DNA from: Chloroflexota bacterium
GTDB taxonomy: Bacteria; Chloroflexota; UBA11872; VXNJ01
NCBI GenBank assembly: GCA_965261345.1
Contig: OZ253449.1
Span: 2,307,784 to 2,371,783, forward strand
Reading direction: 5' to 3'
DNA length: 64,000 nt
The notes under the pieces were generated by a model. That model saw nothing but the letters and a program-made list of their open reading frames with translations. It had not been told where the DNA came from and did no database searches. Below, in pieces: positions 39,524 to 61,366 of the stretch (position 1 is the first letter of the stretch; every line of letters begins with the position of its first letter). A program made the position numbers and the translations under genes.

Positions 39524-42500
39524 CTATTCCTCTACCGGCAACAGCACTACACGCACATAAATGTCGACGGGCAGCACGCGTAGAGCAACGGCCTCAATCT
39601 CAGAAATCGTCACCGCTTCCAAACGCTCCTCGAATTCGCCAAATTGCGAGACTGGCTCTTCTCGTTGCGACGCATTCAGGATCTGTCTCAGCCAATAGCC
39701 GTTTTCGCGCAACTGTTCCTCGCGCGAGGAGAGGAATTGCTCCTTGACCGTATCCAGGTACTCCATTTCACCGCCGGCGCGCAGCCACGCGATCTCCTCC
39801 AGCACAACCGCAAGCAATTCATCGGTGCGCGTGGGATCACTTCCAAAAACGATTGATACCTGGTATTCGGGATCGGGCAAGCGGCTGCGGCTCGCGTTTA
39901 CCTGAACGCTGTAAGTTCCGCCGAGGTCTTCACGAACTCTCTCGCGCAGTCGAATCCCCAGCATCTCGCCCGCAACAGAGAGCGCCAGCGCTTCCTGTCG
40001 GCTAAATTCGGCCTTGCCAGCGAACACCAGCACCGTTGCGGCGCGCGGTTCAATACCGCTGCGGACGACATGGTCCTCCAGTCCGGTCGGCGGGTCGATC
40101 CCGACATCGCGCCACTGCTCGACATCGCCTATGGAAGGAAGGCTTGCCAGGTACGTTTCCGTAAGCGAACGCAAGTTATCCCAATCGAAGGCGCCCACGA
40201 ATACAAACGTCGAATCACCCAGATTTTGGAATCGGTCAGAATACACCGATTCCACCCGGCCGGCATCCAGCTCGGCAAGCGTTTCCACCGTCAGTGGACG
40301 CTCCCGAAAGTGGCTTTGGCTGAGCACGGTGCCAACTCTGTCAAATAGAACCGAGTCGGGGTCGGCGGCGCGGGCTTCGGCAACGCTTTGCAGGCTCGCT
40401 TCGTATCTGGAAAAGTAGGCTGGATCCAGTCGCGGCTGAGTCGCGTAGAGAGTTATCAATTGGAAAAGGGTTTCAAGATCCTGCGGCGAGGCGCCGCCAC
40501 TGAATCCCTCGAACAGCTCCCCGATGTAGGGGGACACCGAAACTCTTTTGCCGGCCAGCAGCTTGTCGAGCGCGACACTGTCGTGCAGGCCAACTCCGCT
40601 GCCGGAAACTATCGCGTCCGCGTATTGCGCCGACACATGGTCATCATCGTCCACCAGCGAGTGTCCGCCGGGGCTATAGGAGCTAAACGCCACTTCATCG
40701 TTACGGAAGTCGGTTTGCTTGGCGATAACCGTGATGCCGTTGGATAACGTCCACCGCACCGCATCGATAGATTCGAGTTGCTCTTCCTTGGTTATGCTTC
40801 CTGGGACTGGCGGGTTCGCCAGCAACGGAATGTCGTCGAGGGAGTCCTCAAAGGGGTCAAGGTCAAGCGTGCTGCCGGCTTGGATCTGCGTTAGTAAAGT
40901 CGTGGCCAATTCGCCATCGGTGATGGAGCCTTCAGTCACGGGGCGAACAACCAGGAGTGCCGTATCTTCAAGTTGGGTCCAGGATTCTTTGAGCGCGTCG
41001 AAGTCCGCAAGGTCGATCTGGGGCAGCAGTTCCTGGTACAACTCCCACTCGGCCGCGATTCCCGGCGCCGGTATGCCGCTGAGGAAATGGACCGTGTATT
41101 CATCGGCCAGGCTTGCCGACGGAATCTGGTCGCGTTGCTTGTACGCACTTTCAACCGCCCGCAGAAGCGTGATCTTCTCGCGCGCCAATTCGGTGTCGGT
41201 AAAACCGTGCAAGCGAACTCGGTGCATCTCTTCGAGCACCGCCTCCAGACCCCGCTCAACCCCATCCTGCTCGACCCACCCCGAAAACGTCAGGATGTCC
41301 AGGGATTCCACGAACGGTAATCGTCCCGCCCCCGCCTGCAGGTAAGGCGGATCCACCACCTGGGCCCGCTCGAACAGGCGTGCATTGAGCATCATGAAGG
41401 CCAGTTGTTCCACCACGTAACGTTTAAAGGACACTAGGCCCTGACCGCTGTCGGGGCGCAGCTTTCGGATCAAGATGAACTGGGTGCCGGGCGATTCGGG
41501 ATCGGTGAAAACTTCGATCTGCGGAATATCGTGGCTGGGAACATCAATTCGAGGCCGGTCGGTAGGGCCCCCGACCGCGGCGCGATCCTGGCTGGCCTGC
41601 CCCTCCGGCGGCGGCGCAAAGTGCTGCTCAATCTTGCTTTTGATTACAGCAGGGTCAAAGTCTCCAACTGCGATGAGCGCCATCTGATCAGGCCTGTACC
41701 AGCGTTCGTAGTAATCGCGCAACCTTTGGACGGGCGCAGTTTCAATGACCGATGTCAAACCAATCGGGGCGCGCTGAGCATAGCGCGAGGAACCAAATAG
41801 CAGCATTAAAAAGTTGTCTTGGATGCGTGAAGAAAAGCCCTGGCTCAGTCGCCACTCTTCCAGGACCACGCCCCGCTCCAATTCGACCTCCTCCGGTTCA
41901 AAGGCAATTGCGAAGGCCCAATCGCTCAGGATCTGAAACGCGGTCTCGGTGATCTCGGGGTCATAGGTCGGAATCTCAATCCAGAAAAGGGTGTCGTCAA
42001 AGCCGGTGCGGGCGTTGATGTCGGGGCCGAAGGTGCCGCCGACGGATTCAAGGTACTCGACGATTTCCTGCTTGGCGAAGCGCTCCGTCCCGTTGAACGC
42101 CATGTGCTCGACGAAGTGAGCCAGTCCGCGCTGGTCCTCGTCTTCGTGAACCGAACCGCCTTTGACGACAAGGAGAAACTCGGCCCTTTCACGTGGTTCC
42201 ACGTTTTTTTTGATGTAGTAGGAAACGCCATTGGAAAGGGTGCCACGGACGACGGTGGGGTCAAATGGGAGGGGTGGGCCCACCTCGAGCTCCGGGACGA
42301 TTACGGAGGCGGGTGTCGGGCTCGGTGCGGGTTCGGGCTGGACCGGAGCTGGAGTCGGACTCGCCGTCGGCGCAGGAGTTGCCGGTGCGGCGGTTGCGGT
42401 GGGCGCCGGACTTGCAGTCGGCGTGGGCGAGGGTGTCGAATCCGGTTCCGGATCGCAGGCGACCAAGGCAATCAGCACGAGCACGGACAGAATTGCGGCC

Positions 42501-42535
42501 AATGCCGACTTTAGATTCGCCCCGGTTGGATTCAT
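39524..42535 (-). CDS. M16-family (pitrilysin/insulinase-like) zinc metallopeptidase, a double-unit 1003-aa lipoprotein.
   Basis: Signal peptide plus lipobox LVLIALVAC, a Pro/Thr/Ala-rich linker, and the inverted zinc motif HFVEHMAFNGT (HxxEH). The second M16 unit lies in the C-terminal half. Confidence 0.9.
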   Translation of the reverse strand: MNPTGANLKSALAAILSVLVLIALVACDPEPDSTPSPTPTASPAPTATAAPATPAPTASPTPAPVQPEPAPSPTPASVIVPELEVGPPLPFDPTVVRGTLSNGVSYYIKKNVEPRERAEFLLVVKGGSVHEDEDQRGLAHFVEHMAFNGTERFAKQEIVEYLESVGGTFGPDINARTGFDDTLFWIEIPTYDPEITETAFQILSDWAFAIAFEPEEVELERGVVLEEWRLSQGFSSRIQDNFLMLLFGSSRYAQRAPIGLTSVIETAPVQRLRDYYERWYRPDQMALIAVGDFDPAVIKSKIEQHFAPPPEGQASQDRAAVGGPTDRPRIDVPSHDIPQIEVFTDPESPGTQFILIRKLRPDSGQGLVSFKRYVVEQLAFMMLNARLFERAQVVDPPYLQAGAGRLPFVESLDILTFSGWVEQDGVERGLEAVLEEMHRVRLHGFTDTELAREKITLLRAVESAYKQRDQIPSASLADEYTVHFLSGIPAPGIAAEWELYQELLPQIDLADFDALKESWTQLEDTALLVVRPVTEGSITDGELATTLLTQIQAGSTLDLDPFEDSLDDIPLLANPPVPGSITKEEQLESIDAVRWTLSNGITVIAKQTDFRNDEVAFSSYSPGGHSLVDDDDHVSAQYADAIVSGSGVGLHDSVALDKLLAGKRVSVSPYIGELFEGFSGGASPQDLETLFQLITLYATQPRLDPAYFSRYEASLQSVAEARAADPDSVLFDRVGTVLSQSHFRERPLTVETLAELDAGRVESVYSDRFQNLGDSTFVFVGAFDWDNLRSLTETYLASLPSIGDVEQWRDVGIDPPTGLEDHVVRSGIEPRAATVLVFAGKAEFSRQEALALSVAGEMLGIRLRERVREDLGGTYSVQVNASRSRLPDPEYQVSIVFGSDPTRTDELLAVVLEEIAWLRAGGEMEYLDTVKEQFLSSREEQLRENGYWLRQILNASQREEPVSQFGEFEERLEAVTISEIEAVALRVLPVDIYVRVVLLPVEE

Positions 42536-43123
42536 GCCTTGTCCTTATTGCCGCAATTCCGGGACGAGGTTAATTCATTTCCAATTCGAAACGGCAGCGG
42601 ATCGAGGGCGAACACGCCAACAGTCCATTGCAGACCCGCCGCGATCCGTGGCGTCAATTAGGAAACAATTCCCGATTGGCAAAATGCCCAGTCGGCGGGC
42701 AACAGCGAACGCGGCCTTCCGAACAATTCCACTTCGAGATCGATGATACGCCGGGCATTGGACCCGTTCATGGGGTAACTCAGGCATCGGCACGCACCTT
42801 CGCGCCCGCGCCGGTTGGATCGCACTAGTGTTCAGCGATGAACTGCGCCGTCCGCTGGGTCAGATTCGGCCCGGTTTCGGCCCGTTCCAACCGCCAATCG
42901 GTCAAGGCCAATCCTGCGTCTGCTGCCCATGCCGTGCCGGATCCAGATTTGCTGGCCCGCAATCTGAAGAGCCCGGATTTTTCGGTCAACAGCACTCACC
43001 AGGCGAGGCCGTATCCCTCTTCGGTCCAGCGGGCATGGATCGCATTCCTTTCCAGGCCAGGACCCATGTCACCAATACCAGGACGCCCAAGGCTGACATT
43101 GAAAATCGTTAGCTGAATTCAAG

Positions 43124-43306
43124 TCAGATATTCAGATCAAGTGGAGGAATGGTTTGGGCATGGCAACGAGGCCATTCAGGGCATGCATCGCCCGACCCTG
43201 TCACCCAGACAACGCCACCGAAAGCTACATGCGTAATCGCCACGGCAAGTCCCAACAGCGAGACGGTGTGGTGCCAGGACAGTTTGGCAGTCAATGACCC
43301 AGCCAT
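43124..43306 (-). pseudogene. N-terminal fragment of heme A synthase (CtaA/COX15-like).
   Basis: A 60-aa ORF reading SLLGLAVAITHVAFGGVVWVTGSGDACPEWPRCHAQ, matching the family GG.VR.TGSG..CP.WP.C. The remaining ~250 aa are absent. Confidence 0.35.
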
Positions 43307-43725
43307 TCTGCTTTGGGTTGGCCCTATCGGAACGCCGAGTTGCTACCGAGACAGACGAATCCAGGGATCGGTGATCGCGGTGGCGGTGATGATTCGCCGG
43401 CCCCGAGCCGCATCAGCGTAGCCTGCGGGCCCGATTCGCCCGCGACCAGCCGGGGGCGAAAGCTGCTTCGAATCGCCGGATTCGTAGGCCCCGGCAGATG
43501 CAGCGGCCCCTTTTCTTACGCGGTGCCAGCGGCAGGGTGTCTCTTTCCGAGCGCCCCGTGGCATATTCATCAATCAAGAAAATTAACTGCAAGCGGGAAT
43601 TGACGATTGCGCCGGTTGTAGCAAACTCCGGTTTGTAGCGTACTGGCAACGGCCGCCTTCACACCGGCGCCGTCACGTGATCGATCTCTGCCTTCAAATA
43701 ACCAGGCAGGTAAGGAGGCCTCCCA

Positions 43726-44652
43726 ATGCCTGAGCGCAAGGTGCTGCTGACCGGCGCAACCGGATACGTTGCATCCCAACTTCTTCCCGCGTTTCGTGAG
43801 AAGTACGACTTGTCATTGGTTGACGTTCGCGGGACCGATCGAGAGGGCCGGGAAGTAGCGGACGTCGCCATCTCCGATCTCAGCGCCCCAGACCTGGGGA
43901 CGTACGCCCATCTATTCAAGGGCCAGGACTCGGTGGTTCACTTCGCACACATGCGCCGACGGGGAATTCCACTGGACGACTTCTATGATGAGCAATTCAA
44001 CGTGGCGATGGCTTACAACGTATTTAGATCGGCTTACGACGCAGGGGTGCGTCGGGTGGTGATGGCCAGTTCCAACCACGCCGCCGATTGGTACGAGCAC
44101 GCGCTGATTCACGATCGCAAATTGGAGAATCTGGACCCGTACGACTTGCCTCTTTCCGACAACTTCTACGGATGGGCCAAGGCGACGTACGAGCACATCG
44201 GATTTTTATTTGCTTCCGGAGTTTTCGGGAGAAAATTGGAAGTGGTGATGGTTCGAATAGGCGCACCGCGGGAGATTCGCCTACAGAATTTCCCTGGCAA
44301 CCCGAAGGCTTATAGGCGCGATTTGGGCGCTTACCTTAGTCGCAGGGACTTGTCGCAGCTGTTCACCAAAGCCGTGGAGACGCCGTCAATCGAAAACGAG
44401 CACGGCGTACCCTGGTTGGTGGTCTACGGGATAAGCAATAACACCCGCGCTTTCTGGTCCCTAACGAGCGCGCGAAAGTTTCTCGGGTATTCCCCCGAGG
44501 ACGATTCCGAAGTCAAATACGCTGACGACATTCGTAGTTTTCTAACCGGGCCCGACGGGAATCGAGAGCCGGGAAGAGTTGGCGGACGGATAGGGTCCGT
44601 CGATTTCCCTGATGCCAATTTCATTCCACGCAGGCCACCAGCGGACGGCTGA
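43726..44652 (+). CDS. NAD-dependent epimerase/dehydratase family protein (uronate-dehydrogenase-like).
   Basis: VLLTGATGYVASQL (Rossmann), VMASSNHA, and YGWAKATYE (YxxxK). Confidence 0.8.
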   Translation: MPERKVLLTGATGYVASQLLPAFREKYDLSLVDVRGTDREGREVADVAISDLSAPDLGTYAHLFKGQDSVVHFAHMRRRGIPLDDFYDEQFNVAMAYNVFRSAYDAGVRRVVMASSNHAADWYEHALIHDRKLENLDPYDLPLSDNFYGWAKATYEHIGFLFASGVFGRKLEVVMVRIGAPREIRLQNFPGNPKAYRRDLGAYLSRRDLSQLFTKAVETPSIENEHGVPWLVVYGISNNTRAFWSLTSARKFLGYSPEDDSEVKYADDIRSFLTGPDGNREPGRVGGRIGSVDFPDANFIPRRPPADG

Positions 44653-44956
44653 CGATTCGCCCCGCCTTCAGCGCCATCCAGTGGCTCAAAGGGAGCACTC
44701 GTCCGAAATTAGCGCCGAGCGCCGGATCGCCCAGCTTTCAAAGAAGCCAACCGGAGTCCTCTGCTGAAACCGAGTTGAGCGTCATCCCATCGTGAAACCC
44801 TTCGCGCCACAGGGCGGTCGCCCCTCCCTCGGCCGTTAAACCGATAGAAAAGCGATGGTTGGGAGAGCACCTGGCCCGGGCGGCTAAATTCGCGGATTCC
44901 TGGCCGGACCCCAATCGCGGAGGTTTGTTGTTGGGCAGCTCAGGGTTTTCGGCGCC

Positions 44957-45844
44957 TTACCCAGGCACGCTAGTGGTGGGCGGTCTGAAATGATGGTCCT
45001 TGCGGGCGGGGTATTGACGGGCGTGGAACTCGTCACTCCACTCGGTCAGCCTGGTCACTGCTTCTTCGAAAAGTAGCTTCCCTTTCTTTACGGAGGCCAG
45101 CTCGGGGGACCCGCACACGCCTGTTTCCGTGTAAGTGCTCGTCCAGCTTGTTACGGCGACAGGCCCGAAACCGAACAAATCCACCGACTCGAATTTGGAT
45201 CCCTGGGCGTTGGTCCACGTCTGATGGTTTTTGGCCAGGTCCATTCGCACCATCGATTCGTCAATACCCAGTGCGAGTGAAGTTTCCAACTCGCAGGCGT
45301 GAGCGCAGCCACCGGGAAAATGCGACTCCCTCCACGTGGCAGCAAAATCTGGATCCACCGTGACAAGCGACCACCAACTCGTTAACGACACGACGGCGTC
45401 GGTTTCGATCATTACCCGCCGAGCGGCAAGATCCAATGGCGGCACGTTGGAGCCGTGACCATTGACCACTATCACCTTCTTGAACCCATGATGGACGACG
45501 CTCTTGATAACGTCTACGACATAACGGATGAACGTTTCGTGGTGGACCGTGATGCTGCCCGGGAAGTCCATCACGTGAGTTGTGTACCCATAGGGGATTG
45601 CCGGCATCGCCAGCAGCCTGTCTGGCCTCCGTCGTGCGGCCTCGTCGGCCACTGAGTCGGCCGACCAGAGGTCCATCTTTATCGGCAGGTGCGGACCGTG
45701 TTGTTCGACCGTTCCCACCGGCAGTATCGGTATCAAACCTTTCTCGACCGCCTCGTTTACCTCCGGCCAGGTCAAGTTTTCGAATCTGTGCCAATTGCTC
45801 ACGACTTTTCGCTCCGAGGCTATGGGGTTGTCAGTCGAGCGCAC
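44957..45844 (-). CDS. Creatininase-family amidohydrolase.
   Basis: ILPVGTVEQHGPHLPIKMD..VIVVNGHGSN..CHACELETS. Confidence 0.85.
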   Translation of the reverse strand: MRSTDNPIASERKVVSNWHRFENLTWPEVNEAVEKGLIPILPVGTVEQHGPHLPIKMDLWSADSVADEAARRRPDRLLAMPAIPYGYTTHVMDFPGSITVHHETFIRYVVDVIKSVVHHGFKKVIVVNGHGSNVPPLDLAARRVMIETDAVVSLTSWWSLVTVDPDFAATWRESHFPGGCAHACELETSLALGIDESMVRMDLAKNHQTWTNAQGSKFESVDLFGFGPVAVTSWTSTYTETGVCGSPELASVKKGKLLFEEAVTRLTEWSDEFHARQYPARKDHHFRPPTTSVPG

Positions 45845-46501
45845 GCCGGCTCGATGCTGCCACCCTCGGAGCGTACTACGCCGCTTATGCGTGGCAACGC
45901 CGGATGAAGCGGGCGGCCTTCTTACGCGCTAGGCCACGCGGCTCGGCGACTCTGCACCAAAGACAATGCGAAGGTTTTTATGGTTGTTTCCGCGTTGGAC
46001 TGGGTGAGCGGCGTCGCGGAGGACGGCGAATCGATCGTAGTATTCGCTCGCGGCGAATGGTCGTGGGAGCTCAGATTTACCTTGGGTGGGTCCGACGTTT
46101 ACATTTCGAAAATGGTGGCAGAGGCAACATCGCTGGAACAGTACTTCCTAGACGTTTCGGGTGATGATCCCGGTCCGTCAATGCCGTCTACGGCGTGTGC
46201 CTATTTTGTCTAGCGAATGCCACTCGACATAATTACCAATTGTTTCGATGTTGACTCGCCCGCAAATGCCAGGTTCGTCGATCCCGCGGGAGATTTCCAC
46301 ACTACGCTCTCCCGTATTTGCCTAGTCCGCATCGATCGCTGGTATTGCCCCAGAACTGTCCATGTCATCAGTAAATCCGACGCGCATTTATGCCTGAGAG
46401 GAGGCCGGATTTGACGCGCACTCGTGGTTGGTTAGCAGGCGAGTTGGCTGCCTTGGTTCCCTCGAGTTCAGTGCTGTGGACTGGTCTCCTTCCAATCGCG
46501 A

Positions 46502-47596
46502 TCAGTGATCCCGAGTGGGCCGAGACAGAAGCTCTTTAATGTAGACATCTTGCTTCGAATAAGGAATCTCGATCTGTTCGCTTGCGAAGCGACGGTAGAC
46601 CTCCGTGTTAAGGGAATCAGTAACTCGGCCTCGCAGAACTGGTTCTTCGACCCAGGCCAATAGCTCTAGCTCCAGGCCCGAAGGCCCAAAAGAGCGAAAT
46701 CGCACGCGCGCCTCGGGATCGTCACACACTTCTTGTTGGCTATTGGCGGCATCGAGGAGTACCTGCTTGACATGATCGATATCGCTACCGTAGGCGGTCG
46801 CAACGCGAATCCGAATCCGTGCTTTTTTGTGGGGCCCGCCGGTCTCGTTGGTCACCTTGATGTTCCCCATGACGCCGTTGGGAATCGTGACTTCAACGTC
46901 ATCGCGAGTAAGAACGCGTGTGCTCCGCAATCCGATATGAGTTACCTGTCCCCGTTCTCCCGAATCCAGGACGATGTAGTCGCCAAGGCGGTACGGAGCA
47001 TCAATCAAGATGAGGACTCCGGCGAAAAAATTCGCAACTGTGTCTCTTGCGCCGAAACCGACCGCAATGCCTATGATTCCCGCCGAGGCCAGCCACGCTG
47101 TGATGTCGAGATTCCACAGGAGGAAGAGGATGTAGGCTGCAAATACCACAAGCAGCACATTGTTCACATTGCGGAATAGAGGGACAGTGCGCTCGTCGAG
47201 GTACCGAAACCGACCCTTTTCGTGACTCAGAACTTCCAGGATCAAATGATTTAGACGAATTGCGAGCCCTAGACCCACCACCACCGCAATCGTTCCAAAA
47301 ACTCCGTAGGTAATAGTTCGGAGTAAACCCTCCAAACGCAAGAGGCTTGACGCAACGACAAAACCACCCACCAGTACAAAGAGGAAAAGCGGGCGATGCA
47401 GAATGCCCACTAGGCGATCGTCGAAATCGCTTTCAGTCTGACGCGCCCAACGTAACAGCAGCCTGGTAACGACCCAATCAGTGATCCAAGCAATAAATAC
47501 GCTCAGGATTACAACTGCGGCCGCCTGGATACGAGGATCAACCGCCACCGTTCCGAGTCCCGCAAACTTGTCGAACATAGCCTCTAAACCCTGCAT
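46502..47596 (-). CDS. Small-conductance mechanosensitive channel (MscS family).
   Basis: Several N-terminal TM helices, then GIAVGFGARDTVANFFAGVLILIDAPYRLGDYIV..GQVTHIGLRSTRVLTRDDVEVTIPNG. Confidence 0.9.
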   Translation of the reverse strand: MQGLEAMFDKFAGLGTVAVDPRIQAAAVVILSVFIAWITDWVVTRLLLRWARQTESDFDDRLVGILHRPLFLFVLVGGFVVASSLLRLEGLLRTITYGVFGTIAVVVGLGLAIRLNHLILEVLSHEKGRFRYLDERTVPLFRNVNNVLLVVFAAYILFLLWNLDITAWLASAGIIGIAVGFGARDTVANFFAGVLILIDAPYRLGDYIVLDSGERGQVTHIGLRSTRVLTRDDVEVTIPNGVMGNIKVTNETGGPHKKARIRIRVATAYGSDIDHVKQVLLDAANSQQEVCDDPEARVRFRSFGPSGLELELLAWVEEPVLRGRVTDSLNTEVYRRFASEQIEIPYSKQDVYIKELLSRPTRDH

Positions 47597-48166
47597 TCAC
47601 CGCCTCCCGAATTTTGCGGCAGGCACGAGTAGCACGGACCCGCATCGGGCAAATGCCGCGATGTAGCCAAGCGCCAAAAGGCTCGATCAGACCGCCTGCT
47701 TCTGGACCGATGCGGAAACGACGGATGCTGCTGCCTATCACATCGCCCATCGCGCCGTTGCAATTGAATTTTGCACGCCAAGTTGCCGCACCGGCACCGT
47801 GAAGATCAAAAGTGGTTAGGCTGAAACTGATCTAATCATTTGGCGCACGCATGGCCAGCGTGACCCGCGCTTTTCGGTCTAATAGTCAAATGGCCGGTTT
47901 GGTACGATTCCGCAATTTAATAACGATGGCACACCGCTCTAGGCGCTTCGCCGTTCGGGAGTTTTGCCGCTCAATGAACGATCAGAATCGGTGTTTACAT
48001 AATTACCATTATGTCTAACCCTCGTTACCAAAGTCCACTTGACCTCCGCCTTTTTAAATTCCCGTGCTCCTGGACAACGACCCTCGGCGCACGTTAACTC
48101 GGTTAACCAAGGGCGCTCGAAATCAATTCTCAAATTAGAGTATTAGATCGTGACCACTTTGAATTC

Positions 48167-48805
48167 GTGCCCGCAATGCGATCTCTAAGCGAAAGTGATC
48201 ACCTCACCTCGAGTTTGGAGGCCGCGACCCAGGGGACCTACGGAACGATCCTGGCCGATCCCCCGTGGAGGTTCAATAACCGCACAGGGAAAGTCGCTCC
48301 TGAATACAAGAGGCTGAATCGCTATTCGTCATTGGCGATTGAGGAAATAAGCGCATTGCCTATACAGGATTTCGCGGCCGACGATTCCCATCTGTATTTG
48401 TGGGTTCCCAACGCACTGCTTGACGCGGGTCTGGCAGTAATGAGCAAATGGGGCTTCAAATACAAAACGAACATCGTCTGGCAAAAGGTCGGGAGTGACG
48501 GCGAACCGGATCGGCGTGGTGTCGGTTTTTATTTTCGAAACGTTACGGAATTGGTGCTCTTTGGGGTTCGCGGTTCGAAACGCACTCTGCCTCCGGCAAG
48601 GCGCCAAATCAACTTAGTAAAAAGCCGTCGACGAGAACACTCCAGAAAACCCGATGAGCTTTATGAAATCGCCGAGCAGTGTAGTCCGGGCCCGTATTTG
48701 GAATTGTTTGCGCGTCATTGCCGGGAGGGATGGTCGCAATGGGGTGATCAACTCAAAGCTACATCTGAGTTTTCCGATTCGGCGAGTCGGGTCACGCCGC
48801 TGTGA
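48167..48805 (+). CDS. MT-A70-family (DPPW) N6-adenine DNA methyltransferase.
   Basis: YGTILADPPWRFNN (catalytic DPPW), ..SHLYLWVPN..WGFKY.TNIVWQK, ..RREHSRKPDELYEIAE. Size is 212 aa. Confidence 0.85.
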   Translation: MPAMRSLSESDHLTSSLEAATQGTYGTILADPPWRFNNRTGKVAPEYKRLNRYSSLAIEEISALPIQDFAADDSHLYLWVPNALLDAGLAVMSKWGFKYKTNIVWQKVGSDGEPDRRGVGFYFRNVTELVLFGVRGSKRTLPPARRQINLVKSRRREHSRKPDELYEIAEQCSPGPYLELFARHCREGWSQWGDQLKATSEFSDSASRVTPL

Positions 48806-48873
48806 CTGTCGGCACTTGGTGAAAGTCGGGTTCGAGGGAAAAGAAAATGCGACCGTGAAGACTCGAGTGCCGT

Positions 48874-51180
48874 GTGGAAATTGATTCTGCTGCCGACGGC
48901 AACAACGGACTCGTTTCGGGAGAAGCCATCGCGGGCGCAATGCGAGGGCGAAAACTCCCATATGTAGAAAAAACGGTTCCATTCTCTGATCAAGACAGGC
49001 ACTTATCGGTTGGATGGGTTGTTGTAAGGACCAACAAATCTTCAGTCAGGATACGGAAAGACAAAAAGCACGACGAACGACTCGAAGATGACGTTTGGGT
49101 AACACTAGCGTCGGCAGGATTTGACGAGTTAAATGCGGACCGCCGTTTCTTTATTCCGATTGGTGACCCCGGAAGTCGTGTTCCGCCAAAGCAGATAGAT
49201 GTGATTGCAATAGACAGCGATTCAGTATTGGTTGTCGAGTGCAAATCGTCGGAAAAACCGAAATATCGAAGCCTGCAAAAGGATTTGAATGAAACACGAG
49301 CTTTGCAGCAGAGTATTCGTGATTGGGTCAATGCCCGGTACGAAGACCGCCGAAGGGTCTGCTTCCTTTACGTCACGCGAAACATCAGATGGAGCGCTGG
49401 AGACCGTGCAAGAGCGGAATCTAACCAAATAGAAATATTGCGCGACTGGCAAATACCCTACTACAAGCTGCTGGCGGACATTGTTGGTCCCGCCGCCCGT
49501 CATCAATTGCAAGCTGATTTGTTTGCTGATTCGCCGATTCAAGGGTTGAAAGCATCCGTTCCCGCGTTGATGGGCACGTTTGGGGAGACGCGTTTTTATC
49601 AATTCGCAATCGAGCCCGAAAAGTTGTTGAAGCTGGCCTATGTTTCACACCGAACAAAAATCGATGCGGAGGCAATCGGAACATACCAAAGATTGCTTAA
49701 GAAAACACGCCTCAAGCAGATTGCCGCCCACATTGACGAAGCAAGCACCAACAGCATTTTTCCGACAAATATCGTAGTGAATTTCAGAAAAACTCGCGGA
49801 CTTCGCTTTGACAGAGCCGGGCCACGGGGCAATAGCCCAACCGTGTTGGGCACCTTACACCTGCCAAACGTTTATAAGAGTGCCTGGGTCATTGATGGGC
49901 AACACCGGTTATTCGGTTTTGCGCAAAGCCAACGTTCCGACAAAGGAAAAGTACCCGTACTTGCTTTCGAGGGATTGGATCCGGAAAAAGAAGTCAAGAT
50001 GTTCGTTGAAATCAACAACAAGCAAGTAAAGGTCCCTCGGAGCTTATTGATTCAGCTCGAGCCAGAATTGCGTTCAGACGAAGCAGACTTGTCCCAAAAA
50101 CTGCGAAATCTGCATGTTGAATTGGCATTGGCTTTAGCGAACGATGACGATTCACCGTTGTTCGGAAGAGTTATCACGTCTGATTGGGACCAAGACGCGA
50201 CTAGCAAAACCGTTAGTCTTCCGCAGATGGTCACTGGTTTGCGATCCAGCCAATTGGTCGGATCGGTCCGAAACGATTATGTTGATCCTGGCCCACTTTG
50301 GACGGGATTTGAGGCAACTAAACGCCGAGCACTCGCGACCATAACCCTTTATCTGAATTTATTTGCGACGGGGGCAGAGGATCACTGGGAACGCGGGCGG
50401 AACGAAGGCGGGTTCCTTTGTACCAATTTGGGGTTTAACGCCCTATTGAGGCTTTTGAAAGGGATATTGGATTTTCAAAATCACGCCAATCAAGGCATCG
50501 ATTACCAACAATTCACGCCCGACGAGATCGTCAATTCACTGGCCAAGTACGTGCCACCAATCATCGATTGGTTCAATCTCAGATTCGACTCGGAAAACTC
50601 TAGGTTCCGTGGTCGGTTTGGAAGTGGCGCACCGAAGATTTACGCGTTGGACATGATGGCGTTAATTCACAACAAATACGGCGATTTTGACACTGCGGAG
50701 TTGCAAGAACACATTCGTGCTGGGGGTGCTGAAAGAGTTGCCGATGCAATTCGGCTGGTAGGCGAGATTGAAGATTGCATACGGGCTGTGACGTTGTCAG
50801 TGCTGAAAGGTGAATTCGGCGGCGATGGAGACCGATGGTGGCGCGAAGGAGTGCCTGGGCCAATTCGTGTGTCGGCTGCGAGTAGGGCTGAGGTAAGCGC
50901 GGACGGTGGCAAACGGGAAGTATTTATCTCGCTAATTGAGTACAAAAAAATTGCTGAACAACCGAAATTGTGGCGCAAATTTCAGCCACTATGGACGATG
51001 GACGCAGATTTGAGATCAAAGGCTGAACGATTGCACTGGATGGACACGTTGAATGGCGTGAGGAACAAAGTTGTTCACTCTGGCAGACGACACATCGCCG
51101 ATGAAGAAATCAGTTTCCTGTGGGACGTTTGGGAGTTTGTGGATCGAGTTTCAACATCGTTGGAGAATTCGAAATCATGA
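48874..51180 (+). CDS. Large fusion protein: an N-terminal PD-(D/E)XK-like nuclease, a central DGQHR (ParB/DndB-like) domain, and a C-terminal HEPN-like domain.
   Basis: IDVIAIDSDSVLVVECKSS (D..ExK, ~49200-49250), WVIDGQHRLFGFAQ (DGQHR at 49894-49908) with FVEINNKQVKV downstream, and a C-terminal LNGVRNKVVHSG (Rx4H at 51061-51078). It lies 68 nt downstream of the MTase on the same strand. The start is uncertain (GTG 48874 or ATG 48940). Confidence 0.65.
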   Translation: MEIDSAADGNNGLVSGEAIAGAMRGRKLPYVEKTVPFSDQDRHLSVGWVVVRTNKSSVRIRKDKKHDERLEDDVWVTLASAGFDELNADRRFFIPIGDPGSRVPPKQIDVIAIDSDSVLVVECKSSEKPKYRSLQKDLNETRALQQSIRDWVNARYEDRRRVCFLYVTRNIRWSAGDRARAESNQIEILRDWQIPYYKLLADIVGPAARHQLQADLFADSPIQGLKASVPALMGTFGETRFYQFAIEPEKLLKLAYVSHRTKIDAEAIGTYQRLLKKTRLKQIAAHIDEASTNSIFPTNIVVNFRKTRGLRFDRAGPRGNSPTVLGTLHLPNVYKSAWVIDGQHRLFGFAQSQRSDKGKVPVLAFEGLDPEKEVKMFVEINNKQVKVPRSLLIQLEPELRSDEADLSQKLRNLHVELALALANDDDSPLFGRVITSDWDQDATSKTVSLPQMVTGLRSSQLVGSVRNDYVDPGPLWTGFEATKRRALATITLYLNLFATGAEDHWERGRNEGGFLCTNLGFNALLRLLKGILDFQNHANQGIDYQQFTPDEIVNSLAKYVPPIIDWFNLRFDSENSRFRGRFGSGAPKIYALDMMALIHNKYGDFDTAELQEHIRAGGAERVADAIRLVGEIEDCIRAVTLSVLKGEFGGDGDRWWREGVPGPIRVSAASRAEVSADGGKREVFISLIEYKKIAEQPKLWRKFQPLWTMDADLRSKAERLHWMDTLNGVRNKVVHSGRRHIADEEISFLWDVWEFVDRVSTSLENSKS

Positions 51181-51485
51181 CTATTCGATGTCGAATTGCG
51201 CAAGCCGTCGAGACGCCCACTAGTAATTGAGTCGCCAGAAGTACTGTAGTGCAGGAGGCCTCAAATACGCCAGATTTTGGCAAAAAAATAAGAAATTAAA
51301 GCTGCATTTGGTTTCGCCGTGATACGGTCAGCGATTCCGATTCAGCGCGCCGGTTTGATTGGGGTTGACGCGGAACGGGAGCCCTAGTTGCGGCCCTTCA
51401 ACTGATGGCAGGGATTGCCAAGGGGTCCTGAACCGATTCTTTAAATCGCCGGGTCCGAGCCAAATTGAATTTTGGGATGAACTTT

Positions 51486-52320
51486 GATTGACCGACCGCC
51501 TGCCTATTCAATTCGCATTCTTTTCCTACATGGTGAATCGAATGGCGTTCGAATCATCGAAAAATCCAACTGGAGAAGGCAAAGAGTAGCATTCCCACGA
51601 TCACACGTACGGATCGCGCGCGCGATCCCGATGAGATAGATCGAGCCGGCATTTACGTTCTCTGAAGTGATTCCGAAGGCGAAGAGGGATTGCCGGTGGC
51701 ATTTATCGTCCAAGGCGATGGCAAAAAACAACGCTTAGGCACGCATTCAAGATTCAAGGATTCACGGAATTGCGGGATTGCGTTATCGAGCCGTGACCAA
51801 CACTTGAACCCGGCTCGCGTTGGGTACCTTGAATCTTGGCTCCTCGAACTTACACAGGAACTAAACAGAGCGAGTTGGACAATTCCAACTTCCCATCTCT
51901 CACGTCAATGGGACAAACCGATGCCGCCGAAACGGAGTTGTTTTCGGCAGATGTATTGCTTTGTCTACTCGCATTTGGGGTGAACTGTTTTGTCCGACCT
52001 GAAGATCGGTGTCAATCTCCACCACCATTAGTCCACATCTGTCGCCGCTCAGCGACTTTGTCAGTCCAACTGTCCAGCAATTGTGTTGATTGTCAAGTCT
52101 GAGCGGATGGGTTTGGATGGTGGCTAGTCGAGGGGATTTCATCGACGGCAACTGTCCACACTTTGCGGCGATCAGTCCACTAACGTATTCGCTCGCAATC
52201 TCACCGTGTGCTCTTGAGGTAGTCGCTGCCCGCAACTCTTCGGGGATCATGCTCACGGCAAGGCTCCGCCAGGGCCGTCGCTCCGGGCGATGGTGCTCCG
52301 GAGCGGTCAGCAGCAGCTGC
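51486..52320 (+). pseudogene. Decayed GIY-YIG / DUF4357-like gene (frameshifts plus an in-frame stop). Its 3' end abuts IS110.
   Basis: Segments lie in different frames: YSIRILFLHGESNGVRIIEKSNW..VAFPRS; DEIDRAGIYVL*SDSEG..VAFIVQGDGKKQRL.TH..KD..NPARVGYLESWLLELTQE; ELDNSNFPSLTSM.QTDAAETELFSADVLLCLLAFGV; ..FAAISPLTYSLAISPCALEVVAARNSSG. The family assignment is from memory of the conserved pattern. Confidence 0.4.
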
Positions 52321-52322
52321 GC

Positions 52323-53908
<1,586 letters not shown>

Positions 53909-53924
53909 GCGTTCTATGTCTGTC

Positions 53925-55027
53925 TATCTGGGGGACTTCCACGTCGGTGTGTTCGATCACCTCCGCCCTGGCGCCGGCGTAGCTGGGGCGCTGCTTTGAG
54001 GGCAGGAGCTGAATGCCCTGCCACTTGTACCTGACGGTGTTATCACGGGCGACCCGGCGGGAGTGTCTAAAGCAGAGCACTCCGTCAAGGTCGATGTCGG
54101 GATCTGGGTGGCGGAAGACGTTCTGCGGTTGGGCTGGTGCCACCGCGAACTGCTGGTTGAAGCGCTCTACGAACCGGGAGAGCAGGTAATTGGCGGCGGC
54201 AATGCTCCTTGCCCCATCCAGGCGCAGCTTAAGTCACCAGGCGATCCTGGAAGGTTCCGCAGGCACGTTCGACTCTCCCTTTTGCCTGTGGTGAGCTGGC
54301 AAATATCAGCCGTATCCCCAGCTGCCCCATCGCCCGCGCGAATTGGGTCGCGCCCTCGGCCTTTGCCGGTTCGGCAGAGCGCAACGAGGGCACGAATACG
54401 CTGTGACGATCACTGTAGAGCGCCAACGGGATGCCGTGATCTCTGATCAGGTCGCTTAGCAACTCAAAGTAGCCGCAGGCATCCTCATCGGGCCAGAAAG
54501 CGCGCCGCCAACACCTTGCCGGTGGCATCATCTATGGCCAGGTGCAGGGTAAACAGGGGAAAGTCATCACCCAGCCAGCGGTGATGGCTGCCGTCAATCT
54601 GGACCAGCATCCCTTCGGAGGGCATACGCTCCCTTCTTACCCGGTGGCGGGGCGGGCGCCGGCGCCGCGGGCTTCTGATTCCGGCCGCCGCCAGGATCCG
54701 GCGAAGGGTCTGCCGACCGATCTCGATTCCCTCCCTCTCGCAGAGCAGCTGGGCTAGGTGGGTGTGATTTACATCCTGGTAACGGGTCTGGGCCAGTGCG
54801 ATCACCCTGGCGGCGACATCCGGTGGAGTTGCGTTCCCCGGCCGGCGGCCGCGGTTGCCGTGACTTAAGGCTTGCTCGCCGCGGCTGCGGTAAGCGGCCA
54901 GCAATCGATAGAACTGGCGGCCGCTGAGGCCGAGCAGGGTCGCCGCCTGCTGGGAATCGATCTGCCTGGCAAGGAAGCAATCAAGGATTTGCCGGCGTGC
55001 TGGCGGGAACTGCTCGACCAATGTCAT
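53925..55027 (-). pseudogene. ISNCY-family-like DDE (rve) transposase, split over three frames.
   Basis: HTH (QQAATLLGLSGRQFYRLL..LSHGNRGRRPGN), MLVQIDGSHHRWLGD..TLHLAIDDATGKV (frame a), GYFELL..GIPLALYSDRHSVF..TQFARAMGQLGIRLIFASSPQAKGRVERACGTFQDRLV (frame b), and VFRHPDPDIDLDGVLCFRHSRRVARDNTVRY (frame c). Confidence 0.6.
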
Positions 55028-55300: not shown

Positions 55301-56242
55301 ATGGCTTCGTTTCCAGACAAATGCCCGCTTTGGGGACCTGAATTCTCTGCACGGGTTTCAGCGCGTAGTAGACAAGGTCGAATCGATGTTGAATCGCCCC
55401 GAACAGGGGGGTGCTTCTGCTCAGACAAGGATGTGTTAAGCAATTTGCATGAGTTGAGCAAACGAGAAAAAGCAAAACTAACGACTTGGCTCATCGAAAG
55501 GAGGAGGCAAGGAGAAGATTGGCCGCGGATTACTCAAGATGTAATCGACGCGGTGGCGCGAACAAACCCGTTGCCTGTTTACACCCGGGCTGATCGTTTG
55601 CTGCAGCATTTGAGCGAAATTACTACCGAATTTGGAATGCCATTGTCGGCACCGTTTAAACCGTACGTGGCCCATGCGATCTCAGAGTCAACTAGTGATC
55701 GCGAAGTTGGATTTCTTCGCGATTTTCTCGCCGATCGCGGCTGGATATTGGACAAACCTGGTTGGTCGGGCATGGATACAGCGCTTAAAGTCGACGGCTT
55801 GGCTCGGGTGGAACAATTGACCGTCAACGCAGATTCTCCCCAGGCGTTTGTAGCAATGTGGATAGATTCGTCATTGGACAGCGCATATGTCGATGGATTC
55901 AAGCCCGCAATTGAGGATTGCGGTTACGTGGCGATGAGGATTGACCAAAAGCCCGATGTCGACAAATTAGACGATGAAATCATCGCTGAGATACGGCGTT
56001 CGCGATTTGTCGTGGCTGATTTGTCTCAAGACAATAAAGGCGCGCGCGGAAGCGTTTATTTTGAAGCCGGGTTCGCAATGGGAACGGGTTTACCAGTTAT
56101 CTTTACTTGTCATAAAGAATGGGACGACGATTTTCATTTTGACATTCGACAGTACGCGCACATTGTGTGGGACTCGTCGGACAATCTCCGAAAATCGTTA
56201 AGTGCCCGAATCTCGGCACGACCGCGATGGGCCCGGTATTGA
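55301..56242 (+). CDS. Orphan protein with a C-terminal nucleoside-2-deoxyribosyltransferase-like / TIR-like Rossmannoid domain.
   Basis: The C-terminal ~130 aa read QAFVAMWIDSSLDSAYVDGFKPAIEDCGYVAMRID..DDEIIAEIRRSRFVVADLSQDN..SVYFEAGFAMGTGLPVIFTC..FHFDIRQY. I recognised nothing in the N-terminal ~170 aa (possibly a Cys-containing/wHTH region). Confidence 0.45.
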   Translation: MASFPDKCPLWGPEFSARVSARSRQGRIDVESPRTGGCFCSDKDVLSNLHELSKREKAKLTTWLIERRRQGEDWPRITQDVIDAVARTNPLPVYTRADRLLQHLSEITTEFGMPLSAPFKPYVAHAISESTSDREVGFLRDFLADRGWILDKPGWSGMDTALKVDGLARVEQLTVNADSPQAFVAMWIDSSLDSAYVDGFKPAIEDCGYVAMRIDQKPDVDKLDDEIIAEIRRSRFVVADLSQDNKGARGSVYFEAGFAMGTGLPVIFTCHKEWDDDFHFDIRQYAHIVWDSSDNLRKSLSARISARPRWARY

Positions 56243-57177
56243 TGGGTGAGTGACCTTTTCGCAATGACGGATCGGGCCCGGCCGGGTATGTCGGCACCGC
56301 TCTTCTCTACCGATTCCAATTCATCCACCCACTGTTACCTGCTAAAGGAGGCGTTTCCGCATCGCCACGTGAGGGATGTCCGTTGATGATGGCCATCAGA
56401 GATCGGACAGAGACGGACATCAGTTAGTGGATAGGCAAGTGACGATGTCAATAGACTTTGCCGCTCAAACTGTCCAGCGAACAGAAGCTAGTGGCCACCC
56501 ACACCCGCGGACTTAAACGTCAGTTAGAGGGGCCCGCATGGGTTCTGCAGCAGACCCCTATATAGACATAGGTTCTCTTCTGGAATTAAGCGACGTTTGA
56601 GTAATGTCACCCGGGCCGAAGCGAAGTCTTAATTCAGCAGGGGGCTGTTACTAGTTTGCTGCGTGCTGATCAATTGCCGACGGAGCCAAGCCGTCTGGCG
56701 ACCGAGCCGCCGCAGAACCGGATACGCCGCGAGGGGGCCATCATCCGGCAAGAATTAGGCGAGCCCGTTCACTGACATTTTTGCTGGACCGTTGGACTGA
56801 CAAAGTCGCCGAGCAACGACACGGAAGTGGGGATTTTCATTTCGCCGGGATTTCTGATTGGACTAAATATTCAATTAACTGTTGGCTATGCACAAGGGGT
56901 AACCGGAGTTGCCCGAAGCGGTGGTCGACTGCGAAACGATCCGATCGGCCGATCTTAATGCGAATGGTACCCGAGCGCAATGGCATCAACGGAAGCGTTA
57001 AGGCATTGCGCTCATTGGTCGACTGGACTCGGTCTCCGGATTTCGAATCTGTAGCGGAATTGGGTTTCGCCCGATAGTTGTAACTTGCCGTTTAACGCCC
57101 TACTGCGTGGAGACAATAACCTAAGCCTGCCCATTGTGGTCCCGGCCTTGAAATGCCCTCCCTAGGCCGCTTTCGGG

Positions 57178-57330
57178 TTACCAAACCCTCTGGTAGTAAA
57201 CGGTCTGACCGGGGCCGCATTGACCGCAAGGCGGCAGTCGATCACTGTCGTCGTCGAGGGTTACTTGCCATGTGGTGCACGTAGTGCAGCGATAAGTGCC
57301 TTTGCCAGGTTTTGATCCAATGGGGTACAA
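57178..57330 (-). CDS. Small (50-aa) zinc-ribbon protein. It is absent from the ORF track (too short, TTG start).
   Basis: ggagg, 6 nt, then TTG. The translation is (M)YPIGSKPGKGTYRCTTCTTWQVTLDDDSDRLPPCGQCGPGQTVYYQRVW*, with two CxxC pairs 19 residues apart. Confidence 0.35.
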   Translation of the reverse strand: MYPIGSKPGKGTYRCTTCTTWQVTLDDDSDRLPPCGQCGPGQTVYYQRVW

Positions 57331-57551
57331 ATGAGTCCTCCAAGATGAATATTGGGTAACAAATAAATGTCACGTTTGGGTGCTAACGCCGTCGCATCTA
57401 AAACGGAATCCGCGTTCGCTCTGCGCTTCAGTCCTCCTTCTTTGGCCGCGGTGGTGAAAACGGATTGGCAGTGAGTGCGATTGCGTTAACATGATAATAG
57501 CACGGGCACGTGGCGACTTTGAAATTGGGCACGGTCTAGTGAGGGTGGAAA

Positions 57552-58148
57552 GTGCAAATATCAACCATTGCCGATATTAAGCCAGGATTGTCAACGTCTG
57601 GAAGGGCGGCAGGCAGCCGCCGTGGCGACTGGGAGCTCCGCATCGTAGAAAGCGCCGACATAGTTGAGGACTGTTTGCAACTCAGCGGGCTCCGCAAAAT
57701 AATGGTCGTGCGCAGCACGCGGGCCGAAAAGCACCTCCTTAAGCCATTTGACTTGCTCGTAACTGCACGCTCCCCGGCGGTAAAGGTCGCATTGGTCCCG
57801 CCTGGCGTAACTCGGACTGTCGCGTCATCGACTTTGCTCGTCCTGCGCACTCCTGACCCGGGTTCCGGATTGGCGCACTTCCTCTGGTTCTACCTCTCAT
57901 CGACGCACGGTCGGGCTCAGATAGCGGCCAGATTCACGAAAACATTTTTGCCGGCGCTATCGGCGAAAGCGCTCGGTGAATTGAGAATTCGGTTGCCTGG
58001 GCTCATTGAACTTCAACGCTTGGCCGACCTGATTGATGCGGCCGAAATCTCGCGCATTACAGCAATTGAGGCCGCGCGCATCAGACATGGCGTGATTCGC
58101 GATGCTGTCATCGGCGCGATCACGGCGCCGGCCTATGAAAGGTGTTAA
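57552..58148 (+). CDS. hsdS: Half-size type I restriction specificity subunit (a single TRD plus one conserved helix).
   Basis: 198 aa with a GTG start. ..IADIKPG.., FDLLVTARSP.VKVALV, SSTLLVLR..FLWFYLSS..G, and LGELRIRLPGLIELQRLADLIDAAE match the Methylase_S layout. Its stop at 58146-58148 lies 2 nt before the hsdM ATG. Confidence 0.6.
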   Translation: MQISTIADIKPGLSTSGRAAGSRRGDWELRIVESADIVEDCLQLSGLRKIMVVRSTRAEKHLLKPFDLLVTARSPAVKVALVPPGVTRTVASSTLLVLRTPDPGSGLAHFLWFYLSSTHGRAQIAARFTKTFLPALSAKALGELRIRLPGLIELQRLADLIDAAEISRITAIEAARIRHGVIRDAVIGAITAPAYERC

Positions 58149-58150
58149 CC

Positions 58151-59683: not shown

Positions 59684-60142
59684 CGAGGGCATGGCCCTCC
59701 CCGCCGGTTGGGAAATCGTACGTTTGGGGGATGTGGCAGAGGTGGTGATGGGTCAGTCTCCGCCAGGGGAAGCAGTACTTGATTGGGACGGTGAATCTAC
59801 CGAGGATGATGGGCTACCGTTTATTCAGGGCAATGCTGAATTTGGAAGTAAATCTCCCCAACCGCTGAAATGGTGCGTCGATCCATCGAAAGTAGTTGAC
59901 TCCGCCGACTTGTTGATCAGTGTGAGGGCGCCCGTGGGTCAAACAAATCGAGCTGATCAGCTACTCGCCATTGGCCGGGGCCTTGCCGGAATCCGATTCA
60001 CCGGCGCGTATCAACCCTTCGGTTGGCATGTCCTTAACCATGCCAAACGAGATTTTGAACGTGTTGCTCAGGGAAGCACATTCGGGGCGATAGGCGGCAC
60101 GGAACTTCGATCTCTTTCGCTGGCACTTCCACCCCTACCTGA
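59673..60142 (+). pseudogene. hsdS: Full-length hsdS, 5' part (TRD1). It is interrupted by an IS3-family element.
   Basis: The ATG overlaps the hsdM end by 11 nt. The sequence reads LPAGWEIVRLGDVAEVVMGQSPPG.. up to ..ELRSLSLALPPLP, where the IS begins. Confidence 0.85.
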
Positions 60143-60210
60143 TGACGTGGACCCTTCTATTGGTACCAGGACGAATGTGATTAATCTGGTTCCATAAGAA
60201 AGGGACATTC

Positions 60211-61337: not shown

Positions 61338-61366
61338 AGCTTGGTACCAAGAATGGGTACCCGTCA

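Follow-up and report, generated by a model that had tools for sequence, protein, structure and literature searches.

How might a two-gene locus work in which a predicted DNA methylase stands directly before a large protein that appears to join two nuclease-like domains to a ParB-like one? The question is raised by positions 48167-51180 of a 64,000-nt stretch of the Chloroflexota bacterium contig OZ253449.1 (hereafter the window, meaning the whole stretch that was analyzed), for which an initial annotation, made from the letters alone, had proposed a hybrid of restriction-modification (R-M) and abortive infection. Our results indicate that the pair is probably a self-contained, horizontally acquired two-gene R-M-like module, and comparison of its domains with known proteins suggests that it could function as such an R-M/abortive-infection hybrid.

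A gene pair within a low-GC island

Gene 1 (48167..48805, + strand, GTG start) encodes a 212-aa MT-A70 family DNA methyltransferase (MTase). It is followed by an intergenic spacer of 68 nt (48806..48873, + strand), read from the sequence, and by gene 2 (48874..51180, + strand, GTG start), which encodes a DGQHR-domain fusion protein of 768 aa, the predicted restriction/effector subunit. The two co-directional open reading frames (ORFs) were therefore present with the 68-nt gap that had been reported, and the motifs quoted in the initial annotation (DPPW, IDVIAIDSDSVLVVECKSS, DGQHR and RNKVVH) each translate exactly as described. As judged from profile and homology matches both genes are real, since gene 1 matches Pfam MT-A70 (1.6e-30) and gene 2 matches TIGR03187 (1.6e-46) and has more than 100 full-length homologues. 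Between MT-A70-linked relatives of the two genes the gap ranges from -3 to 107 nt, which is consistent with transcription of gene 1 and gene 2 as a single operon. A terminator scan found no terminator-like site in the 68-nt spacer, and promoter and terminator scans gave no signal exceeding shuffles.

The gene pair has a G+C content of 50.3%, compared to 58.0% in the left flank (40000-47600) and 59.5% in the whole window, in agreement with the earlier remark that it is AT-richer than its surroundings. One of the two spot counts offered for that remark was reproduced (47/60 G+C at 4381-4440) and the other needs a trivial correction, as 49021-49080 holds 26/60 rather than 25/60 G+C. The low-GC stretch spans approximately 47.6-52.3 kb and starts again at 55.0-57.5 kb, beyond a 64%-GC insertion-sequence block. 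The pair lies in a low-GC defence island, where a type I R-M system, a TIR-like effector and insertion sequence (IS) elements are found as well. The module appears to comprise two genes only, because the ORF-poor stretches 47597-48166, 51181-52322 and 56243-57551, compared by tblastn with all ORFs of 80 related loci (see below), gave nothing but chance-level matches when a conserved third gene or pseudogene was sought. No Rfam match was found in 46-58 kb, and the tRNA scan of the whole window found none, so that a tRNA integration site was not found.

Gene 1 belongs to a partner-swapping methylase subfamily

MT-A70/DPPW enzymes are N6-adenine methyltransferases, and gene 1 carries the DPPW catalytic motif at residues 31-34 (nt 48257-48268). 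Pfam PF05063 (MT-A70) matched gene 1 with 106.7 bits (cutoff 23.9), over residues 25-195 of the protein and positions 1-172 of the 172 in the profile, and the PADLOC model MTase_II PDLC03221 matched at 1.5e-81. The earlier description of gene 1 as an MT-A70/DPPW methylase was confirmed by this full-profile match above the gathering score, together with the DPPW motif. Its mark is presumably N6-methyladenine (m6A) at a specific site.

Close homologues of gene 1 (62-66% identity) occur frequently on plasmids, and members of the wider family on phages as well; the records matching the MT-A70 subfamily comprise 465 from phages and 192 from plasmids. We inspected eight plasmid homologues with 62-66% identity. 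Four of them, from Comamonas, Roseivivax, Xanthomonas and Rhizobium, directly adjoin a type II restriction endonuclease (REase) of the BglII/BstYI family. The other four are actinobacterial (L085, L086, L087 and L089; 62-65% identity) and lie beside an AAA-family ATPase and a hypothetical protein, with no classical REase. The ATPase on these actinobacterial plasmids is a possible further non-canonical partner of the subfamily. The MT-A70 and MTase_II matches, together with the BglII/BstYI neighbours of half of the inspected homologues, indicate that gene 1 belongs to a real type II R-M methylase subfamily that swaps partners. Since close homologues pair with BglII/BstYI REases, the REase slot would here be filled by the DGQHR fusion.

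Gene 2 combines a nuclease fold, a DGQHR domain and a HEPN-like C-terminus

An AlphaFold2 model of gene 2 was built on 24 family members (mean predicted local distance difference test, pLDDT, 84.9), and residue conservation was read from an alignment of 78 family members. The model secondary structure places a small alpha/beta domain at approximately residues 1-65 (48874..49068, + strand), for which no family match was found; W48, R59 and K64 are conserved there as invariant alignment columns.

The following region, approximately residues 66-205 (49069..49488, + strand), was assigned as a PD-(D/E)XK nuclease domain by fold search and by its conserved residues E71, D109, D114 and E122-C-K124, with IDVIAIDSDSVLVVECKSS representing residues 108-126. 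The pLDDT was ~84-94 across the nuclease region. The best Foldseek matches of the N-terminal region in the Protein Data Bank (PDB) were all PD-(D/E)XK domains, with probabilities up to 1.00, and included Cdn1 (9u49, the best at E 1.3e-3), VC1899 (1xmx), Can2, Card1, AF1548 (1y88), Hjc and McrC. Superposition on AF1548 (1y88) gave a root-mean-square deviation of 3.3 A over 114 columns. When the full-length model was used, Foldseek recovered the nuclease domain alone, and ParB and HEPN folds were absent among the top 50 matches. When the PDB was searched by sequence, the protein, its family profile and the profile of the C-terminus all yielded chance-level matches only (KdpB, NfnB and ribosomal proteins). 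Pfam Hjc was matched by 13 of 24 relatives.

Conservation across the 78 members was close to complete for the acidic residues, with E71 and D109 each kept in 77 and E122 in all 78. K124 (nt 49243-49245) is a lysine in all 11 MT-A70-linked members, the window included, and the ECK motif occurs in those 11 and in 26/27 Dam-linked members, that is in 37/38 methylase-linked members. Concurrently, threonine replaces this lysine (ECT) in 27 of the 30 members linked to a radical-SAM protein. The split by partner indicates that the nuclease site differs systematically with partner type. PD-(D/E)XK folds are the commonest restriction nuclease cores, and the presence of such a domain in gene 2, for which a structure prediction with fold search had been suggested, is upheld by the fold matches and the conserved E...D...ExK set.

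The DGQHR domain, of the ParB/sulfiredoxin-like (Srx) type and related to DndB and DpdB, extends over approximately residues 228-540 (49555..50493, + strand), where TIGR03187 matched residues 231-531 with 159.3 bits (cutoff 58.85) and Pfam DndB with 53.8 bits (2.1e-14). The DGQHR motif itself is residues 341-345 (nt 49894-49908). Three motifs of this domain, Q272-R273, D341-R345 and F377...N381, were invariant in 78/78 members. With TIGR03187 far above its cutoff in the profile search that had been proposed, this domain is firmly assigned. By analogy with ParB, GmrSD, SspE, DpdB and a DndB-like protein for which a 2025 screen showed ATP and GTP binding (10.1101/2025.10.10.680097), the DGQHR domain of gene 2 may act as a nucleoside triphosphate (NTP)-dependent switch or as a DNA clamp.

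The C-terminal part, approximately residues 600-768 (50671..51177, + strand), is all-helical and is probably a Swt1-like HEPN domain. Domains of this kind with an Rx4-6H motif are RNases of abortive-infection, toxin-antitoxin and CRISPR-accessory systems. The Rx4H motif RNKVVH is found at residues 730-735 (nt 51061-51078), and R730 and H735 were each kept in 76/78 members. HEPN_Swt1 (PF18731) was matched, below the gathering score, by 11/24 full-length relatives (best E 1.4e-5), and a profile of residues 580-768 found 1770 representative proteins (clusters). Of ten sampled carriers of this C-terminal module, seven matched HEPN_Swt1 and no other Pfam family. One of these carriers, P0249, a protein of different architecture, was found by the C-terminal profile at E 1e-28 and matches HEPN_Swt1 with 31.5 bits (gathering 27.5). 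The PADLOC model PDC-M34B matched the C-terminal region at 1.4e-5, and a separate model of the region was all-helical with a pLDDT of 87.7. We accept the HEPN domain, as the initial annotation had named it, as probable because of the conserved Rx4H motif and the transitive Pfam link to HEPN_Swt1. The catalytic signatures of all three domains of gene 2 appear to be under strong purifying selection.

One large protein with exchangeable partners

Searches with gene 2 gave 2303 homologues at E<=1e-3, the full-length ones being ~760 aa long, and its relatives are distributed over at least 526 GTDB species of bacteria and archaea. For the best 80 loci of these species we called ORFs, clustered the neighbours and identified the clusters with Pfam and NCBIfam. 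In 10/80 loci (nine Chloroflexota and one Pseudolabrys) an MT-A70 methylase of the window's kind lies immediately upstream on the same strand, and in 28/80 the partner is a Dam/D12-class methylase, where stop and start codons mostly overlap. An adjacent cassette encoding a radical-SAM protein (Cx3Cx2C) and a GHKL ATPase, often together with a short DGQHR protein of 356 aa, was present in ~32/80 loci, and the remaining ~10/80 showed no recognisable partner or a truncated contig. An MT-A70 or Dam-type methylase is accordingly adjacent in 38/80 loci, including all 10 in the window's clade or with its kind of methylase.

The methylase pairing of gene 2 was thus kept in homologues, in which its loss had been named as a reason to doubt the module. 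The pairing of MTase and DGQHR protein is conserved, but it is one of several versions, as ~40% of the members carry the radical-SAM/GHKL cassette. The Dam/D12 methylase is unrelated to the MT-A70 methylase and both serve the same family of large proteins, and two methylase classes with one partner family are a classic R-M signature. In a neighbour-joining tree the partner type tracks the clades of the large protein, which argues for co-evolution as a unit. Flanking genes beyond the partner modules were not conserved in the 80 loci, which suggests that the pair moves as a module. Cultured carriers of the family include Stenotrophomonas daejeonensis JCM 16244 and Luteimonas aquatica, both Dam-linked, and Novosphingobium aromaticivorans DSM 12444 (plasmid pNL1), which is radical-SAM-linked.

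The cassette operon of short DGQHR protein, radical-SAM protein (Cx3Cx2C) and GHKL/HATPase_c_3 ATPase was observed, for instance, on N. aromaticivorans pNL1 (L081:9281-13421) and on an Agrobacterium plasmid (L082:9473-13696). No PADLOC model matched its radical-SAM and GHKL proteins, and the cassette could be a 'writer' of DNA modification. A pair of genes for a PIN-like domain protein and an ATP-binding protein adjoins the cassette in Novosphingobium (L081:13772-16211) and Agrobacterium (L082:3308-6630), and may be an additional linked defence module.

Relation to characterized systems

The closest relatives of the pair by its methylase are the type II R-M plasmid cassettes of MT-A70 and BglII/BstYI enzymes, with which it shares the methylase subfamily (62-66% identity), the tightly linked and mobile two-gene layout and a PD-(D/E)XK nuclease core. 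In contrast, the partner is here a 768-aa fusion that adds DGQHR/ParB-like and HEPN domains and has no sequence similarity to BglII/BstYI, and type II enzymes would not be expected to depend on NTPs or to cleave RNA.

With GmrSD, BrxU and SspE, in which a DUF262 DGQQR NTPase is joined to an HNH DUF1524 nuclease, gene 2 has in common the defence setting and the linkage of a ParB/Srx-fold DGQxR domain with a DNA nuclease, and the QR, DGQ(H/Q)R and FxxxN motifs occur in both (PMC4619093). The nuclease of gene 2, however, is of the PD-(D/E)XK type instead of HNH, a HEPN domain is added, and the DGQHR domain belongs to the TIGR03187 branch and not to DUF262. Whereas those enzymes are type IV or phosphorothioate-sensing, the methylase pairing seen here implies that modification protects rather than targets. 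Gene 2 gave no match to DUF262, DUF1524 or HNH in Pfam, NCBIfam or PADLOC, and having neither an HNH nor a DUF262 domain it was ruled out as a GmrSD-type enzyme.

The central DGQHR domain is homologous to DndB of dnd systems and DpdB of dpd systems, but those proteins are ~350-380 aa long and have no N-terminal PD-(D/E)XK domain, and gene 2 falls below the equivalog cutoffs. TIGR04172, a dnd-associated DGQHR model that is not the DndB equivalog itself, scored 87.1 bits, far below its cutoff of 450, and the DpdB equivalog NF041060 scored 77.5 bits (8.4e-22), far below 300. No dnd, ssp or dpd genes adjoin the pair in the window or recur as neighbours in the 80 related loci, and no dnd genes were identified among the ORFs examined at 43.7-63.1 kb of the window. 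With equivalog scores that fail and partner genes that are absent, a canonical dnd/ssp/dpd cluster was ruled out, in line with the earlier statement that the locus is not a canonical phosphorothioation cluster.

The initial annotation did not recognise the architecture as a named system, and this held in so far as no named system was found; the pieces, however, had been catalogued in 2013. Makarova 2013 (PMC3632139) describes the DGQHR/COG1479 ParB-like core as often fused to HNH, PD-(D/E)xK and HEPN domains, and Table 1 of Anantharaman 2013 (PMC3710099) lists a Swt1-like HEPN domain fused to ParB, Saro_3948 of Novosphingobium. On N. aromaticivorans pNL1 we found a full-length family member (34% identity, 96% coverage) beside the radical-SAM cassette, and from the gene numbering it is probably Saro_3948. 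This 'ParB + Swt1-like HEPN' entry has the same Swt1-like HEPN subfamily and probably belongs to the same family as gene 2. As far as the relevant parts of the two catalogues go, their entries differ from the present description in being without this family's PD-(D/E)XK domain, its three partner modules and its clade structure. PADLOC 2023 contained no model for gene 2 beyond weak DpdB, DndB and PDC-M34B matches, and in the literature on DGQHR/DndB-like/HEPN_Swt1 fusions we found catalogue-level mentions only, with no experimental study or named system. The gene pair is thus an uncharacterised system of catalogued pieces, probably a form of R-M with an unusual NTPase-DNase-RNase restriction subunit, and is not categorically new.

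Proposed mechanism and alternative explanations

In the mechanism that we propose, the gene 1 methylase would mark host DNA at a specific site as self, and the DGQHR domain of gene 2 would inspect DNA as an NTP-dependent DNA-binding switch. On unmodified foreign DNA this domain would license the PD-(D/E)XK domain to cut, and the HEPN domain would then cleave RNA, either as a second output of the abortive-infection type or as a back-up when restriction fails. The expected outcome would be a protective phenotype. From the BglII/BstYI enzymes beside close homologues of gene 1, and from the Dam methylases of sister clades, we guess that the methylated site may contain GATC, as in RGATCY. There is precedent in GmrSD and SspE, in which a ParB-like NTPase is fused to a nuclease and which restrict DNA in an NTP-dependent manner. 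The R-M-like reading is favored because the large protein is constant and the modification module variable, because two methylase classes are used, and because the methylase subfamily elsewhere serves REases. In the 2013 HEPN survey (PMC3710099), the fusion partners of HEPN domains in R-M systems are time and again nucleases or restriction subunits and not methylases, and the position of the HEPN domain on gene 2 fits this rule.

Several observations weigh against an R-M-like module. The Pfam nuclease matches of gene 2 are all sub-threshold, with 17.8 bits for Hjc (cutoff 21.1), 14.3 for NERD (22.1) and 12.5 for Card1_endonuc (26.4). The window's gene 2 has no direct Pfam HEPN match, and although the top Foldseek matches of the C-terminal model were HEPN proteins (4nqf, Csx1-Crn2), these were not significant (E 0.35-0.84, probability <=0.51). 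A methylase also seems not to be obligatory for the gene 2 family, because ~40% of it has the radical-SAM/GHKL cassette in place of an adjacent methylase and ~10/80 loci have no recognisable partner. The best-studied DGQHR protein, DndB, is a regulator and not a nuclease (PMC4507180). Palindrome avoidance in the 64-kb window (GATC, AGATCT, RGATCY and all 4- and 6-mers) gave no signal, in a small sample with little power. Finally, methylation, cleavage and protection by the pair are all activities that we infer from comparison with other proteins.

In an alternative view, the large protein is a DndB/DpdB-like regulator or accessory of modification, in which the DGQHR domain tunes or targets the methylase and the nuclease-like domains only bind nucleic acid. 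The relationship of the central domain to DndB and DpdB in the profile searches above would fit this, as DndB is an ATP-modulated repressor (PMC4507180) and DpdB, as summarised in PMC12839542, is an ATPase required for base insertion. The MT-A70 domain spans residues 25-195 of 212 aa, which leaves little room for a target-recognition domain, and none was obvious; moreover, the radical-SAM cassette already has its own short DGQHR protein. However, equally small MT-A70 homologues pair with BglII/BstYI REases, so a DGQHR helper is not needed, and a protein that only binds would not be expected to keep the catalytic residues of its PD-(D/E)XK and HEPN domains nearly invariant. As the scores for the DndB-associated (87 vs 450) and DpdB (77.5 vs 300) models are also far under their cutoffs, we regard a role as regulator or accessory as unlikely.

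Depending on which nuclease domain is the real effector, the pair could instead be mainly an abortive-infection or addiction system of the toxin-antitoxin-like kind, in which the HEPN RNase would kill the cell or halt its growth upon disturbed methylation or a disturbed nucleotide pool and DNA cleavage is minor or absent. HEPN domains are typically RNases of abortive infection or toxins, as stated in the HEPN survey (PMC3710099), and ParB/DGQHR-nuclease fusions have been proposed as programmed cell-death modules tied to DNA modification systems (PMC3632139). The Rx4H motif is conserved, and the radical-SAM-linked clade that swaps the nuclease lysine (ECT in 27/30) keeps its HEPN domain, which suggests that HEPN is the constant effector. 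Nevertheless, the full E...D...ExK set is intact in the window's clade, D109 and E122 are retained even in the ECT clade, and the tight pairing with site-specific methylases points to a self/non-self test at the DNA level, which leaves this explanation with a low likelihood. A further view takes the large protein as a modification-dependent type IV-like enzyme that attacks modified foreign DNA by the logic of GmrSD and SspE, ParB-like NTPase-nuclease fusions that read modified DNA (PMC4619093), with the methylase as an unrelated or orphan fellow traveller on a mobile element. The abundance of the MT-A70 subfamily on phages (465 records) and plasmids (192), and the lack of a neighbouring classical REase in 4/8 close plasmid homologues, could be explained in this way. 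It appears very improbable to us, since in 38/80 loci the methylase directly adjoins the large protein in the same orientation and often overlaps it, the methylase class tracks the clades of the large protein, which chance hitch-hiking does not explain, and gene 2 carries no HNH/DUF1524 or DUF262 signature.

A two-gene R-M-like module thus remains the explanation that we prefer, and a wider version of it is possible, though we put it forward only tentatively. The ~760-aa protein could be a universal 'reader-executioner' with interchangeable 'writers', namely MT-A70, Dam or the radical-SAM cassette, which would install a DNA modification of undescribed chemistry. In the version found in the window, an NTP-driven ParB-like switch would test for m6A, and the protein would then fire both DNase and RNase. 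If true, this would be a single-protein restriction/abortive-infection hybrid without characterised precedent.

If the R-M-like reading is true, the large proteins would form a family of restriction-like enzymes with a very wide distribution, considering the at least 526 GTDB species of bacteria and archaea that carry relatives and the 1770 representative clusters of the C-terminal module alone. Such an enzyme would join DNA cleavage, a ParB-type NTP switch and HEPN RNA cleavage, which are normally split among separate defence systems, and would be a simple two-gene model both for ParB-like switches that read the modification state of DNA and for the coupling of direct immunity with abortive infection. 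The sister cassette of radical-SAM protein, GHKL ATPase and short DGQHR protein in place of the methylase gives a tangible starting point for finding a possibly new DNA modification. Two points temper this significance: the fusion has been on record for a decade, and all the evidence given here is comparative inference.

Other features of the island

A TIR-like ORF of 313 aa (55301-56242, + strand) lies in the same low-GC island. Its residues 170-297 matched the PADLOC 'TIR effector' model at 6.5e-13, and there was also a weak Pfam match to nucleoside 2-deoxyribosyltransferase. It is possibly an additional defence gene, with no obvious partner close by. The type I R-M locus (57552-62157, + strand) begins with an hsdS fragment (57552-58148) followed by hsdM (58142-59683); an IS3-like transposase ORF (60483-61337) interrupts an hsdS gene, whose two parts lie at 59625-60197 and 61312-62157, and no hsdR was seen between this locus and the window end. 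A 310-aa ORF (62144-63076, + strand) overlaps the end of hsdS and had no PADLOC match.

Directly downstream of gene 2, the 1.1 kb at 51181-52322 has 50% GC and no ORF longer than 118 aa; this stretch gave no Rfam match and showed no similarity to the neighbours of related loci. It is followed by the 64%-GC block (52323-55027) within the 50%-GC island. The block encodes an IS110-family transposase on the minus strand (52323-53669), and its overlapping ORFs at 53431-55027 resemble fragments of another IS, and 54485-55027 has transposase-type helix-turn-helix domains. The insertions in this block postdate the acquisition of the island. A 41-nt inverted repeat (52040-52080 and 56781-56821) is 90% complementary, which is not expected by chance, with a partial third copy at 56454-56478. 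Its two arms enclose 4.7 kb that hold the TIR-like gene and the IS block, and they may represent the termini of a composite mobile element or a repeat resembling a miniature inverted-repeat transposable element.

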